Part shown: piece by piece, positions 56,113-64,000 of the stretch
Numbering within the stretch: position 1 is the stretch's first letter
Layout of the letters: the number at the start of each line of letters is the position of its first letter
Origin: Klebsiella phage LPKP23
Strand: one strand, 5' to 3'
Sequence record: PV112478.1
Length of the DNA stretch: 64,000 nucleotides
Notes under the pieces: generated by a model
Databases searched by the model: none
Told to the model about the DNA's origin: nothing
What the model saw: the letters and a program-made list of their open reading frames with translations, nothing else
Translations under genes and position numbers: made by a program

Positions 56113-56586
56113 TTAACCCTCGAACCGATAAACAATGATTTCAAGATTGGTATCCTTAAAAGCCCGCTCAATATTTTGGCGGACCAATTCCCAATCGCCA
56201 CCGGCCAGCCCGCAACCGATTAAAGGAAAACCAACCTTTAACGGCTTCTCTTCCTTTTTGAGAATCGATGCCATTATCTTCATTGCCAGATACTGTGCGC
56301 TATAATGCGTTTTATATCCTGGATCTGAATGGTCGTGGTGAAATTGGCCACAAAGATTGAAGCCCCATTGACCCTCTTTTTTGGCGGCGGTTAATTTCCC
56401 CAATCTGTTTTTGACAGGGCGTTTGTCGGCAAAGTAAGACTCGGCTATCCAGGGAAAAGCTTCGAAGATCTTAACGGCGATACCGCTCTTTGCAATCCCA
56501 AAACAATTTACTTGGTGGGCAATGACGTCGACTTCCTTATTAAAGAAAGCTTCAATCAAATCCCCTTTAATTTCGGTATAGGTCAT
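56113..56586 (-). CDS. macrodomain protein (ADP-ribose / Appr-1''-p processing family)
   Basis: IKGDLIEAFFNKEVDVIAHQVNCFGIAKSGIAVKIFEAFP against macro GDIT...VDAIVNAAN..L.GGGGVDGAIHRAAGP. Also VGFPLIGCGLAGGDWELV against FPAISTGVYGYP. Confidence 0.65.
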   Translation of the reverse strand: MTYTEIKGDLIEAFFNKEVDVIAHQVNCFGIAKSGIAVKIFEAFPWIAESYFADKRPVKNRLGKLTAAKKEGQWGFNLCGQFHHDHSDPGYKTHYSAQYLAMKIMASILKKEEKPLKVGFPLIGCGLAGGDWELVRQNIERAFKDTNLEIIVYRFEG

Positions 56587-56604
56587 TGCCCAAACTCTCC
56601 GTAT

Positions 56605-57219
56605 TTAATTGATGATAAACTTACAATCTTCGAGACGGTATTCTCGCCCACCAAAACAAAGTTTCTTAACATAGTCAGGACGAGGAAGATTAACGTTGTC
56701 CATGTGGGCATTATGGGAAACTAATGACTCGTTAATTATTTTTCCTTTGCTGTATTCGACGAGTTTTCCTGGGTGTTCTTGGGAGAAACCAAACCCCGAG
56801 AATTTCAACTTTACATGAGAATGAAAAGAGAGATTTCGCCAGCCTGGGAATTTCAACCCTTTAACGTGCGCGGCGATAAAACGGATCAAAGCGGTATAAA
56901 TTTTACCCAGTTCGCTCACTGTCAGTCGTTCTTCTTCATCGCCAAAACGGAAAATAATCTTGACGTCATGACCGTCAAGATTACGATGCCAGTCGATGAT
57001 AAAACGAGAATAATAACCGTACAGACCATTCTCGGCGACAGTGCGGTTGCGATAGGTTTGTGCCGTCTCAGAGTCGTAACGATAGGCACCTGGTTCCAAA
57101 GGCTGCCCGCGTCTGAAACCAATAAACTGTGCGAGCTGTACCGCTTGGATTAAAGTCAGGTGCACGGCGGTACCGAACTTGTTAGTAATGATAAAAAGAG
57201 GACTTGAAGACGTGTGCAT
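56605..57219 (-). CDS. hypothetical protein
   Basis: 204 aa. The GWRN tetrapeptide was noted, but I did not consider it enough for a family call. Confidence 0.5.
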   Translation of the reverse strand: MHTSSSPLFIITNKFGTAVHLTLIQAVQLAQFIGFRRGQPLEPGAYRYDSETAQTYRNRTVAENGLYGYYSRFIIDWHRNLDGHDVKIIFRFGDEEERLTVSELGKIYTALIRFIAAHVKGLKFPGWRNLSFHSHVKLKFSGFGFSQEHPGKLVEYSKGKIINESLVSHNAHMDNVNLPRPDYVKKLCFGGREYRLEDCKFIIN

Positions 57220-57224
57220 TAGTT

Positions 57225-57824
57225 TTACTCCTGTAGTAGTTTGGCTATTTCAGTAACGAATTCGGAATGATCCTCTATTTTATCGCTACCGATCTCTGAA
57301 CGTCTTATTTGATCATCGACATATTTAGAGATTAAGACGTTGATTTTGCCAGCTGAGCTGGAGAGAAATTCTTTTGATTCGGCGTAGTCATTATTCCAAT
57401 GACGAATATAATACTCTGGAGAAAATCTTTCCGGCGTGTTGAAGTTTTGTAATTCGCCCTTTGCGAGTAACTTGAGGTTGTCTGAAAACAAAACATCAAT
57501 ACTGCGACCTGGGTAGTCATCCCTATAGCTAAATTGGACTGAAATCGAGAATGTATTGATAGCAGGGTGATCGCCACATCGTTCGATGACTTCCCTTTTC
57601 CAATCGGTTAAAGGTCCATTTTGTAAAGCAAACGTTAATACCTCCTCGGAAATAATCTCGTCGCCATAGTGCTCTCGGTTGAAATTTTCGATTTTATCCG
57701 TCAATGACTTGAATAAATATGTTTGATTTGAACGAATAAAAACCGGGTAATAATCATTAGTGATAAAGTCCCTTTCTTCCTGATTTAACGGCTCTTTAAG
57801 AAAACCGAGTTTTGTTCTGGACAT
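57225..57824 (-). CDS. hypothetical protein
   Basis: 199 aa. Confidence 0.5.
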   Translation of the reverse strand: MSRTKLGFLKEPLNQEERDFITNDYYPVFIRSNQTYLFKSLTDKIENFNREHYGDEIISEEVLTFALQNGPLTDWKREVIERCGDHPAINTFSISVQFSYRDDYPGRSIDVLFSDNLKLLAKGELQNFNTPERFSPEYYIRHWNNDYAESKEFLSSSAGKINVLISKYVDDQIRRSEIGSDKIEDHSEFVTEIAKLLQE

Positions 57825-57826
57825 TT

Positions 57827-58213
57827 TTACTCCTCATGAAATGGGTTATAATCAAAAGCAATAATTGTTTTATGTTCTCCTTGATTCTCTTTCGGATCCC
57901 ACGCCCTAACAGAAAATTTTATCGTATCCTCTGATGATCCCTCAATAAGTTTCTTCAAATCCGAAGAAGGTTTTATTTTGACATAAATCCCATCGGTTTG
58001 CCTATAAACGTCCATTACTATTCCAGCGTATTTACTTTCATCAATAGTTAACCTCCTCGCGACCATGGCTTCATCGCCCATTAACCGAGAAATGTTTGGC
58101 GGACTTATTTCACCAATAACTTTTTTCCGCATTTTTTCTAGTTGGTAGATAATTTCTTCTTCACTAAATCCATGAGTATCGACTATTTTAACGGTAAACA
58201 TTTTATTCCTCAA
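57827..58213 (-). CDS. hypothetical protein
   Basis: 128 aa. Confidence 0.45.
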   Translation of the reverse strand: MRNKMFTVKIVDTHGFSEEEIIYQLEKMRKKVIGEISPPNISRLMGDEAMVARRLTIDESKYAGIVMDVYRQTDGIYVKIKPSSDLKKLIEGSSEDTIKFSVRAWDPKENQGEHKTIIAFDYNPFHEE

Positions 58214-58254
58214 ATCAAAATTTTTAGTTTAAGTGCCCTAACTAAACAGTTAAT

Positions 58255-62290: not shown

Positions 62291-62308
62291 ATATTTTCCC
62301 CTAGTTAC

Positions 62309-62722
62309 TTATTTAACCCAAGTGTCAATCGGGCGAATAAAACTTTTGAATTCGCCGTACCACCATCCGTCTTCTTTTAAGACGGGTTTAAAGTACGCCG
62401 ATCGTCTGGCGAAACCTTTTGCGTGTTGACCTTCTGTCAAGAGTTGTTTATTCCAGATTGTACGTAATACTGTTGTTGGGAGAAGAAACGTACCACTCCC
62501 TGACAGCGGACGATCGAAATAAGGGCCAACCTGAAAACGAAAATGACCTGTTTCAGTATCGTATTCAAAATCAATCGTATCGTCGCCAATGTCAAATTGA
62601 TTCAAAAATGTTTTCGATAAAGAACAATCGGAATCCCGAGAGAGGCGTACGTACTTTACGTGATAACTGCGTTCCCGGTGAATATCTTTCACTTGTGAAT
62701 AAGGGACTTTGATAAAGGGCAT
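62309..62722 (-). CDS. hypothetical protein, paralogue of 60729-61148
   Basis: See 60729-61148. Confidence 0.5.
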   Translation of the reverse strand: MPFIKVPYSQVKDIHRERSYHVKYVRLSRDSDCSLSKTFLNQFDIGDDTIDFEYDTETGHFRFQVGPYFDRPLSGSGTFLLPTTVLRTIWNKQLLTEGQHAKGFARRSAYFKPVLKEDGWWYGEFKSFIRPIDTWVK

Positions 62723-62745
62723 TCACTACTCCTTGAAAAATAAAA

Positions 62746-62767
62746 AGACGGAGGAAATCCTCCGTCT
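62746..62767. terminator. bidirectional hairpin terminator
   Basis: AAAAAG ACGGAGG aaat CCTCCGTCT. Confidence 0.55.
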
Positions 62768-62773
62768 GATAAA

Positions 62774-63151
62774 TTAACAAATGACCGCGTCTACAAACAG
62801 CGCCGACATCGAACGGACTGGCGTAAGCGACTCTTTTAACGTAGGGAAGAATTTACCTTCCGAACTGATGAATAAACACGCGCAGTCTACCTGACCACGA
62901 TTTATTCGCTGCGCCATTGCTAAGGTGTTCGGTAACGGAATGACCTTGATCGAAGCGATCAATTTCGGCCCGAGGTAGTCAGCAATGACCTCTTTGAATT
63001 TCGCGCGGGTACGAGGATCACCGTATACCTTTACGGTCTTACCCTTCATCAGGTTATTCGCAATGAAAGCGGAATAATGCAACATCGCGGATTCGTTGAA
63101 GGTTCCTAACACTTTAATGGACTGGATTCGTTTCATTTTGTAAAAACCCAA
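62774..63151 (-). CDS. hypothetical protein
   Basis: 125 aa. Confidence 0.45.
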   Translation of the reverse strand: MGFYKMKRIQSIKVLGTFNESAMLHYSAFIANNLMKGKTVKVYGDPRTRAKFKEVIADYLGPKLIASIKVIPLPNTLAMAQRINRGQVDCACLFISSEGKFFPTLKESLTPVRSMSALFVDAVIC

Positions 63152-63678
63152 TAAACGTCGTAAAATGAAATAGCATGAATTCCCGAGGGGAGATTGTCGA
63201 TCTCTTCGATATCTTTCATATCGAGTAAATTGACAACTAACCCGGTGGATAATAATCGCTTGAGGCTATACGCCACCGCACCAAGCGGAATTTCGAAGGT
63301 AATCGCCTTTTGACATCTGAAATGGCTGACCAGTTTGCGCGGTTTATCCGCTAACCGTTCGAGATAATCTTTATACGTTTCCCCGTCGTGACCACGCAGC
63401 GGCCACTGCCAGATAATTCCGTCTGCGGCTACTATCGCCTCCCCTCGAAAACGATAAGGATTTTGATATTGCTCCCATTTGAGATACCCCGGTTGGTACA
63501 TAGAGCCGTGATCAAGGATCTCCAATTCTTTCCCTGCTATGGCTTCATGAATCATTTCTGCAAGGGCCGGTATGAGAACAGTTTCCCCTGCGGCATTTTT
63601 ACCAAGAGCGACCTTCTCTCCTTCCACTAAACCGTAGACGTCAGCCGCATAAGCGCCACGTTCAAACTTAAATTTCAT
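63133..63678 (-). CDS. hypothetical protein
   Basis: Start moved to the ATG at 63678 (MKFKFERG...), which has a GGAG SD and forms an ATGA overlap with the Tpt1 stop. Confidence 0.5.
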   Translation of the reverse strand: MKFKFERGAYAADVYGLVEGEKVALGKNAAGETVLIPALAEMIHEAIAGKELEILDHGSMYQPGYLKWEQYQNPYRFRGEAIVAADGIIWQWPLRGHDGETYKDYLERLADKPRKLVSHFRCQKAITFEIPLGAVAYSLKRLLSTGLVVNLLDMKDIEEIDNLPSGIHAISFYDVYWVFTK

Positions 63679-64000
63679 TCTTTTTTCTCCTCTATTTTGA
63701 AACAACCTACCGGAACATGTTCGACCAGCCAAACCCCGTTCAACGCTTTGTAGAACACGTAGCCGCGTTCCAATAGTTTCTGGGTATCAATACTCAAGAC
63801 TACGAGCGACCCTTTCTTAGCGTACCGTATACCCACTAAACGCGCGGTCTCAATGTGGTCAGTTAAATGAACGAACTGACGCGACCCCGGCGTTAACCCT
63901 TCCTGAAAAATGCTCTCTAAATTCCCCGATGCAGTGCCGTGGTAAAGTACCTCAGGCGGTACCTCTTCATTGAAGGCCATTTCACTTACCGGGAATGAAT
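63675..64000 (-). CDS. kptA: RNA 2'-phosphotransferase KptA/Tpt1, C-terminal part (gene runs off right edge)
   Basis: EVLYHGTASGNLESIFQEGL...RQFVHLTDHIETARLVGIRYAKKGSLVVLSIDTQKLLERGYVFYKALNGVWLVEHVP is collinear with E. coli KptA (LYHGTAS..L..I...GL....R.YVHLS....TA..VG.RHG.PVIL.V.A..M...G..F....NGVWL...V). The reading frame stays open from the ORF-track ATG at 63980 to the window edge at 64000. In KptA the LYHGT motif is mid-protein, so the true start lies off-window. Confidence 0.85.
   Translation of the reverse strand, partial: SFPVSEMAFNEEVPPEVLYHGTASGNLESIFQEGLTPGSRQFVHLTDHIETARLVGIRYAKKGSLVVLSIDTQKLLERGYVFYKALNGVWLVEHVPVGCFKIEEKKE

Follow-up and report, generated by a model that had tools for sequence, protein, structure and literature searches.

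The last 8 kb of a 64,000-nucleotide (nt) stretch of Klebsiella phage LPKP23 (PV112478.1; here, the window) encodes a Tpt1/KptA RNA 2'-phosphotransferase and two macrodomain proteins, which we will refer to as Macro1 and Macro2. An earlier note on this DNA, made by reading the letters alone, had grouped the three as a single cluster dealing with ADP-ribose and RNA 2'-phosphates. All three open reading frames (ORFs) are indeed present where the note had placed them, on the minus strand. Our analysis leads us to divide the cluster in two. We put about even confidence in a reading in which Tpt1 and Macro2 belong to a module for RNA 2'-phosphate removal and end healing that depends on nicotinamide adenine dinucleotide (NAD+), and in which Macro1, together with a 204-amino-acid (aa) partner, is an independent ADP-ribosyl hydrolase.

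The 8-kb region is shared with several cultured phages that serve as points of reference throughout. It is 98% identical to "Serratia" phage KpSz_1, 96 to 98% identical to Klebsiella phages KpLz-2_45 (Siatvirus) and MJ359, and in parts ~67 to 80% identical to FBKp24 (phiKp24), all of which are jumbo phages of ~300 kb. The MJ359 annotation includes a nuclear shell protein (chimallin), a PhuZ tubulin, and split multisubunit RNA polymerases, and from this annotation the window phage is a nucleus-forming chimallivirus.

The Tpt1 ORF is open from its listed ATG to the window edge, with no in-frame stop, and the 101 aa that lie within the window match positions 98 to 176 of the 177 in the PF01885 profile (E = 1.2e-17; 64.9 bits against a cut-off of 26). 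The 98 to 100% identical copies in KpSz_1 and MJ359 span profile positions 3 to 176, a two-lobe architecture with an N-terminal RNA lobe and a C-terminal NAD+ lobe. At 191 aa, the KpSz_1 copy covers the whole PF01885 profile (E = 1.7e-43; 149.2 bits) and matches phrog_5470 (8e-57); the NCBIfam equivalog cut-offs are not reached for Tpt1 (197.5 against 239). Residues R19, H20, R78, and R123 are invariant in an alignment of four diverged phage copies (A3), and we take these to be the catalytic Arg-His-Arg-Arg tetrad, assigned by the Tpt1 motifs LRH, RAxQGHS, and SRxxVHL. By sequence, then, the ORF at the window edge is predicted to be part of a full-length Tpt1/KptA with an intact tetrad. The identity given in the earlier note holds, with a correction to its motif wording, which should read FVHL rather than HVHL. 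Tpt1 is rare in phages: a tblastn search of a phage collection found it in 97 of 50,697 records, mostly jumbo phages. (A pattern search built from the Tpt1 alignment returned FBKp24 only, its patterns being too specific, and tblastn was used instead.)

As a single sequence, Macro2 scores below the Pfam cut-offs for both Macro_2 (PF14519; 23.1 bits against 27) and Macro (16.5 against 22). Its homologs of 42 to 70% identity carry a precomputed PF14519 assignment, and a profile of 26 family members matches yeast YMR087W (1njr) with an E value of 3.6e-12. The invariant block PGNSFGIMDGGFD is common to all 26, as are N40, G47, G48, and D50 of the ADP-ribose-binding/catalytic motif N-x6-G-G-[VLIF]-D. 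The AlphaFold model scores highly (predicted local distance difference test [pLDDT], 94.5; predicted template modeling score, 0.91), and its first match in Foldseek is again 1njr (E = 5e-8), followed mostly by other macrodomains among 194 matches with E values of at most 1e-3. The earlier note had named structure prediction as a check on its macrodomain assignments, and Macro2 does fold as a macrodomain in the model, which indicates a protein of the yeast Ymx7/YMR087W type. Ymx7, its closest solved relative, is an ADP-ribose-1''-phosphatase that acts on the by-product of Tpt1. As a homolog of this enzyme, Macro2 is predicted from its sequence to have phosphatase activity.

The pairing of Tpt1 with Macro2 recurs in other phages. 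Macro2 homologs of 42 to 58% identity are found on three large uncultured phage contigs, L012, L013, and L045. In L012, RlaP is followed at a distance by Tpt1, two small ORFs, Macro2, an ORF of the FEYD family (Table 1), and a PF09414 RNA ligase. L013 begins with Macro2 and a 174-aa ORF and continues, with gaps, through NadR-PnuC, RlaP, and Tpt1 to a FEYD-family ORF beside an RNA ligase (PF09414), while in L045 Tpt1 lies directly upstream of Macro2, with RlaP and ThyA after it. RlaP thus accompanies Tpt1 and Macro2 in all three contigs, and the PF09414 ligase does so in L012 and L013. Gene order is shuffled across the four lineages, yet Tpt1 and Macro2 are always less than 7 kb apart (1.9 kb in the window, 0.8 kb in L012, 6.2 kb in L013, and 16 nt in L045). 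Two further contigs are non-syntenic: L042 has a 39%-identical Macro2 homolog with a PF09414 ligase 1.5 kb upstream, and L018 has a 33%-identical one with RtcB 3.5 kb away. By a rough estimate that places three genes uniformly in ~300 kb, the chance of two macrodomain genes falling within 8 kb of Tpt1 is below 1%. This figure overstates the significance, since jumbo phages have their accessory genes clustered, and the recurrence of the pair across lineages is stronger evidence.

Distant relatives of Macro2 in unrelated phage contigs have other neighbors as well. One, in L042 (9506-9958), is near a YAcAr (SLOG-family) protein, and another, in L032 (10447-10947), adjoins a P-loop (GLPGSGKTT) kinase-like ORF. 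These neighbors hint at nucleotide or RNA-end chemistry around the Macro2 family.

BLAST comparison across the lineages identified a recurrent gene set around this pair, consisting of a 238-aa ORF, a phosphodiesterase (PDE)-like HD protein, the 174-aa ORF, Tpt1, a 120-aa ORF with a conserved GRG motif, Macro2, and the FEYD family (Table 1). The HD protein is encoded two genes upstream of Tpt1, beyond the window edge, and has a weak HNxxH...HDxxH signature like that of class I PDEs. In the Klebsiella phages, the HD phosphohydrolase and the 174-aa protein are adjacent separate genes just upstream of Tpt1 (L003 20231-21455). In L012, the two are fused into one 398-aa protein (4685-5881), and this fusion implies that they work together. 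The 120-aa GRG ORF keeps its place between Tpt1 and Macro2 in L012 (9545-9946; 38% identity); it has only 6 representatives in 1.84 billion proteins and no match in the PDB. The two FEYD paralogs that flank Macro2 are 31% identical to each other (E = 1e-11), and their homologs in L012 and L013 stand immediately beside the RNA ligase, the L013 copy being lengthened to 292 aa.

Table 1. Genes and hairpins of the Tpt1/macrodomain region and the NAD+ supply genes, in window coordinates
Feature	Coordinates	Strand	Remarks
Tpt1/KptA RNA 2'-phosphotransferase, C-terminal NAD+/ADP-ribosyltransferase lobe	63675..64000	-	PF01885; ORF runs past window edge
181-aa ORF	63133..63678	-	ATG overlaps Tpt1 stop codon (ATGA); Klebsiella clade only
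120-aa ORF, conserved GRG motif	62774..63136	-	phrog_12807, 1.2e-10
Terminator-like hairpin with T-run	62746..62767	-	9 pairs, 6 GC; 3' of Tpt1, 181-aa, and 120-aa genes; consensus match only
137-aa ORF, FEYD family	62309..62722	-	Paralog of 60729-61148
159-aa ORF	61811..62290	-	Klebsiella clade only; no family match; 69% identity in FBKp24
Macro2, predicted Ymx7/YMR087W-type (Pfam Macro_2) macrodomain, 198 aa	61200..61796	-	N40-x6-G47-G48-F-D50 motif
12-bp GC-rich hairpin, terminator-like on both strands	61169..61197		Between Macro2 and next gene
130-139-aa ORF, second FEYD paralog	60729..61148	-	Directly downstream of Macro2
204-aa ORF, conserved upstream partner of Macro1	56605..57219	-	Homolog in L014
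Macro1, predicted ALC1/TARG1-class macrodomain, SCO6735 subtype, 157 aa	56113..56586	-	Asn27, Gln81, IGCGLAGGDW
PRPP synthetase	29973-30851	-	PF00156, 8.8e-12
NAMPT	28195-29976	-	PF04095, 1.6e-24

Macro1 is a macrodomain of a different kind. It scores 20.3 bits against Pfam Macro, under the cut-off of 22, and aligns over its full length (residues 4 to 154) to TARG1, SCO6735, and BT1257 (E = 4e-6 to 7e-6). Matches to DarG macrodomains are weaker (5m3i, E = 9e-5; 5m31, E = 2.3e-3), and further matches are to phrog_335 (E = 1.2e-42) and to the macrodomain part of the NCBIfam DarG model (1.3e-11). The class of Macro1 was taken from such single-sequence searches; the PDB profile E value of its family alignment (A2) was ignored as circular because TARG1 and AdfM had been put into that alignment, which joins 34 family members with TARG1, PhiKZ AdfM, and the AdfM-like protein of MJ359 (37 sequences). 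In these sequences, N27 and Q81 are at least 90% conserved. Where TARG1 has its catalytic K84 and DarG its K80, the Macro1 family has a near-invariant Gln (motif NLYGQ; Gln81 in Macro1), and the position of TARG1 Asp125 is Ala or Gly.

The same residues are found in SCO6735 of Streptomyces coelicolor (5e3b). IAHQVN27C of Macro1 aligns with IAHVCN, NLCGQ81 aligns with NMIGQ, and IGCGLAGG is the same in both. This places N27, Q81, and GCGLAGG of Macro1 opposite the Asn27, Gln85, and Gly128 region of SCO6735. The two proteins share an IGCGLAGGxW loop, and both are without the TARG1 Lys84/Asp125 dyad and the DarG Lys80. They differ in that their overall similarity is low (phmmer, 29.8 bits; E = 4e-6) and in that Macro1 is phage encoded and paired with the 204-aa gene. 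Because SCO6735 has the same Gln/Asn active site, the sequence assigns Macro1 to the SCO6735 type within the ALC1/TARG1 class and not to the DarG/TARG1/AdfM type. A Lys-type de-ADP-ribosylase (TARG1/DarG/AdfM) is ruled out for Macro1 by Gln81 and by the Ala or Gly at the Asp125 position. In SCO6735, Gln85 and Asn27 are both essential, and the enzyme cleaves the thymidine-linked ADP-ribose that DarT leaves on DNA (PMC9411070). It likewise takes ADP-ribose off phosphate ends of RNA that a KptA-like enzyme has modified (PMC11833690). By analogy, Macro1 may strip ADP-ribose from DNA thymidine (DarT marks) or from RNA 5'-phosphate ends.

The 204-aa ORF upstream of Macro1 has only 3 close homologs in 5.8 billion proteins. 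In contig L014, a 33%-identical homolog abuts a 50%-identical Macro1 homolog, with overlapping start and stop codons. The Macro1 homolog in L015 has neither Tpt1 nor ligases nearby. Because the L015 copy is away from Tpt1 and ligases and the L014 copy keeps the partner, we regard Macro1 with its partner as a unit of its own. An AlphaFold model of the 204-aa protein, built from 4 sequences, is poor (pLDDT, 51.5), and its best Foldseek match, to Whirly proteins, is not meaningful (E = 0.02; template modeling score, 0.22).

A local scan with hidden Markov models (HMMs) identified exactly three macrodomain genes in the whole MJ359 genome. The third, kpMJ359_103 (L005 25293-25736), is 34% identical to PhiKZ gp104 (E = 5e-26), matches the NCBIfam DarG model at 7e-37, and retains the DarG-type TKD.WR Lys motif. 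PhiKZ gp104 is AdfM, the proven chimallivirus anti-DarT2 macrodomain (PMC13309987), and by these sequence matches kpMJ359_103 is likely its ortholog in this phage group. Macro1 is like AdfM a stand-alone TARG1/DarG-class macrodomain in a nucleus-forming jumbo phage, and differs from it in having Gln for the DarG-type Lys. At 22% identity to gp104 (E = 7e-4), Macro1 is ruled out as the ortholog, since kpMJ359_103 matches better. No AdfM-like gene was found within the window; judged from the near-identical MJ359, a third macrodomain is predicted elsewhere in the genome of the window phage.

The earlier note had also pointed to an NAD+ module 30 kb away, and this module is real: NAMPT and phosphoribosyl pyrophosphate (PRPP) synthetase are encoded side by side (28195-30851). 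Lying at a distance, it is a supply module that does not adjoin the Tpt1/macrodomain cluster. Relatives have a second NAD+ module, a NadR-type nicotinamide mononucleotide adenylyltransferase/kinase with PnuC, 8 to 10 kb past the window edge.

From the family identities, catalytic motifs, Macro2 fold, cross-lineage linkage, and lack of a detectable ligase, we infer every substrate and the biological purpose as follows. The module would comprise Tpt1, Macro2, the HD phosphodiesterase, the 174-aa protein, the small ORFs between Tpt1 and Macro2, and the FEYD paralogs. A cyclic phosphodiesterase would open the cyclic product of Tpt1, Appr>p. The PDE-like HD protein, working with the 174-aa protein to which it is fused or adjacent, is a candidate for this step, and so is the 120-aa GRG protein. 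Macro2 would then turn the opened product into ADP-ribose, and NAD+ would be resupplied by NAMPT, PRPP synthetase, NadR, and PnuC. Such a module would serve to repair tRNA or other RNA that ribonuclease defenses of the host have cut. Sister phages encode sealing alongside, either as Rnl with RlaP or as RtcB; because a sealing enzyme is absent in the window phage, a host ligase would have to seal there, or the module would only clean RNA ends. Macro1 and its 204-aa partner would most likely take ADP-ribose off nucleic acid, where it could be thymidine linked (DarT) or 5'-phosphate linked (Tpt1-like enzymes).

Several observations weigh against this proposal. Searches of the window and of the whole MJ359 genome turned up no Rnl, RtcB, or RlaP, whether by local HMMs (E of at most 1) or by tblastn with two phage Rnl and RtcB; the ligase HMMs drew on two or three phage Rnl sequences and one or two of RtcB, and T4 Rnl1-type ligases had no profile search. 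None of the 369 coding sequences of MJ359 is annotated as a ligase, and no ORF in the window or MJ359 has the canonical double HxT/S motif of 2H proteins. With none of these detected, the repair pathway is incomplete in the window phage. To our knowledge, T4-type and RtcB-type repair make no 2'-phosphate junction, so the need for Tpt1 would be unexplained even with RtcB. RNA repair, one of two purposes offered in the earlier note, is backed by the Tpt1-Macro2 linkage in four lineages, three of them with RlaP and two with PF09414 ligase neighbors, but not by a recognizable ligase or 2H protein in the window phage itself. The linkage can be questioned too. Macrodomains alone are unremarkable in jumbo phages, 56% of which have one (PMC9503650). 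Tpt1 has no macrodomain or ligase homolog within 8 kb in Erwinia phages RAY and Alexandra or in the C. difficile phage phiCD211, most of the Macro2 relatives in IMG/VR (about twenty) have no Tpt1 nearby, and terminator-like hairpins separate Tpt1 from Macro2 in the window. Because the four linked lineages share a wider synteny (ThyA, BCS1-like AAA ATPase, NadR, and PnuC), the linkage may partly be inherited gene order rather than selection. One possibility, to which we give a small but real chance, is that there is no functional unit, and that three accessory genes related to NAD+ or ADP-ribose lie near each other by descent in long co-oriented jumbo-phage blocks. The shared synteny and the solitary Tpt1 genes of RAY, Alexandra, and phiCD211 fit such a history, as do ThyA and many ORFans between the macrodomains and the hairpins between genes. 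It fits poorly with a shuffled order in which Tpt1 and Macro2 nevertheless stay close, to the point of direct adjacency in L045, and with the non-syntenic L042 and L018, which tie Macro2 to RNA ligases.

A functional role could also lie in counterdefense. Both macrodomains would then remove ADP-ribose marks placed by the host, whether on DNA by DarT or on RNA by CmdT- or RhsP2-like enzymes, or else break down immune signals derived from ADP-ribose, and Tpt1 would be a mere neighbor with a separate role. The active site that Macro1 shares with SCO6735, which cleaves the DarT product (PMC9411070), argues for this, as do the canonical hydrolase motif kept in Macro2, the use of AdfM by chimalliviruses to counter DarTG2 (PMC13309987), and the heavy investment in NAD+ salvage, which is known to counter immunity that works by NAD+ depletion (PMC9503650). 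We nonetheless consider it fairly unlikely, given that the AdfM ortholog is the third gene elsewhere, that Macro2 follows Tpt1, RNA ligase, and RlaP across lineages with no defense-related partner, and that the nearest characterized relative of Macro2 is a small-molecule phosphatase. Removal of DarT-type marks, the other purpose in the earlier note, is plausible for Macro1 only, by its SCO6735-type Asn/Gln site. Tpt1/KptA enzymes are said, following Munir et al. in 2018, to ADP-ribosylate 5'-phosphate ends themselves. In a writer-eraser arrangement, Tpt1 would mainly cap RNA or DNA 5'-phosphate ends with ADP-ribose, protecting phage nucleic acid or disabling host RNA, and the macrodomains would reverse or tune the capping with no need for a ligase. 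An intact Tpt1 and intact macrodomains despite no detectable ligase are consistent with this, and TARG1-class macrodomains, including SCO6735, do remove 5'-phosphate ADP-ribose made by Tpt1/KptA (PMC11833690). However, 5'-phosphate ADP-ribosylation is physiologically unproven anywhere (PMC11833690), the sister lineages pair the same genes with a ligase and RlaP, pointing to repair, and we regard the arrangement as very improbable. Finally, KptA also erases internal tRNA 2'-phosphates installed by a kinase (PMC9095486), and ligation is therefore not the sole source of KptA substrates. Intact Tpt1, Macro2, and HD genes without a ligase could form a ligation-free module that erases host-placed 2'-phosphate or ADP-ribose marks, or that writes and erases a 5'-phospho-ADP-ribose cap, with the 120-aa GRG, FEYD, 174-aa, and 204-aa families as new enzymes or nucleic-acid adaptors. 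We think this distinctly unlikely.

The earlier note had put forward the 204-aa and 181-aa ORFs (Table 1) as the missing ligase or phosphoesterase partners. That suggestion is not supported: neither matches Pfam, PHROG, or NCBIfam, and by eye neither has a KxDG motif. The 181-aa ORF is not conserved beyond the Klebsiella clade, with a 67%-identical homolog in FBKp24 and none in L012 or L013. For the 204-aa ORF, which has no PDB match either, we rejected a 2H phosphoesterase, a ligase, and an ADP-ribosyltransferase; the His residues of its HLTL and HSHV stretches are not conserved (Q/K and N/W in homologs). Two candidates in MJ359 were also set aside. An ORF with a ligase-like motif (L006 35303-36301) belongs to no Pfam family and was taken as chance, and the annotated "polynucleotide kinase" kpMJ359_044 was not used, since it lacks a Pfam kinase domain and matches PHROG only weakly (7.5e-8).

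RtcB varies among close relatives of the window phage. FBKp24 and KpSz_1 carry it ~11 kb downstream of Tpt1, and the KpSz_1 gene (L003 6994-8251; 90% identical to that of FBKp24) is a clean insertion of ~1.26 kb between window positions 51969 and 51974. It is absent from the window, to which KpSz_1 is otherwise 95 to 98% identical, and from KpLz-2_45 and MJ359. Identity falls to 67% in the 188-aa ORF beside the site (51977-52543), a drop suggestive of a recombination mosaic. Also beside the site is a 442-aa ORF (50629-51957) whose N-terminal ~80 residues look BRCT-like by eye. We rejected this ORF as an alternative ligase, given that it has no Pfam or PHROG match and that KpSz_1 has both it and RtcB. 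Because KpSz_1 carries both, RtcB is an insertion, not a replacement.

An NAD+-dependent RNA repair system of KptA, 2H, Macro, RNA ligase, and RlaP has been predicted for jumbo phages (Iyer et al. 2021, 2022; PMC7824862, PMC9503650), and the Tpt1-Macro2 module looks like a ligase-less version of that kit. The two have KptA, a macrodomain, and NAD+ salvage in common, and the sister lineages add a PF09414 ligase and RlaP in the locus. The window phage differs in having no detectable ligase, RlaP, or 2H protein, with the PDE-like HD protein and small conserved ORFs instead. There is a similar likeness to the yeast tRNA-splicing by-product pathway (Tpt1 with Ymx7/YMR087W and Poa1p): the phage has the same Tpt1 family and tetrad, Macro2 is by profile and fold a probable member of the Ymx7 (Macro_2) family, and Macro1 is in the same broad class as Poa1p (6lfu match). 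Unlike yeast, the phage is without a Trl1-type ligase, kinase, or 2H cyclic phosphodiesterase, and its activities are predicted ones.

Annotations of relatives already name these genes RNA 2'-phosphotransferase, phosphatase, and macro domain, and with the pathway idea published as well, the practical value of the present analysis is modest. The novelty lies in local details: one chimallivirus with three macrodomains that differ in mechanism, a Ymx7-type macrodomain recurrently tied to Tpt1 and RNA ligases, the fusion of the HD and 174-aa proteins, a natural presence/absence polymorphism of RtcB, and several conserved families in the locus. One nucleus-forming phage can thus carry a Lys-type AdfM-like, a Gln-type SCO6735-like, and a Ymx7-like macrodomain, which hints that labor may be divided, some macrodomains protecting DNA in the phage nucleus and others processing RNA or metabolites in the cytoplasm. 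If the Tpt1-Macro2 module is what we propose, it would offer a compact and genetically variable test bed, with natural versions that have an Rnl2-like ligase, RtcB, or no ligase. Such a test bed would suit a long-open question, the role of bacterial and phage Tpt1/KptA in organisms without a known route to RNA 2'-phosphates, and would give a physiological context to the poorly studied Ymx7/Macro_2 family.

The genes of the region are on the minus strand throughout and tightly packed. A sigma-70 promoter scan was uninformative (19 found versus 17.8 expected); chimalliviruses rely on RNA polymerases that they encode themselves. Terminator-like hairpins are somewhat enriched in window positions 53000-64000, with 19 found versus 11.1 +/- 3.6 in shuffles, and strong ones follow the 120-aa GRG ORF and Macro2 and lie at 59033-59007 and 55133-55106. 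These hairpins may split the block into several transcription units.

Several other genes in the window deserve mention. Positions 1089-1793 encode an HD_4 (RelA/SpoT-type HD) protein (E = 1.4e-10), possibly a hydrolase of (p)ppGpp or another nucleotide. Downstream of the cluster are two AAA+ ATPases, one at 48082-49398 and a BCS1-like one at 53659-55038 (BCS1_N, 6.8e-10), whose placement relative to Macro1 is kept in L014. Finally, the thymidylate synthase homolog at 59350-60729 is 459 aa long and matches Pfam in two parts around an insert of at least ~140 aa, with the catalytic PCH kept. In L012 and L014, the homolog is found as two ORFs, interrupted by an I-TevI-like homing endonuclease.

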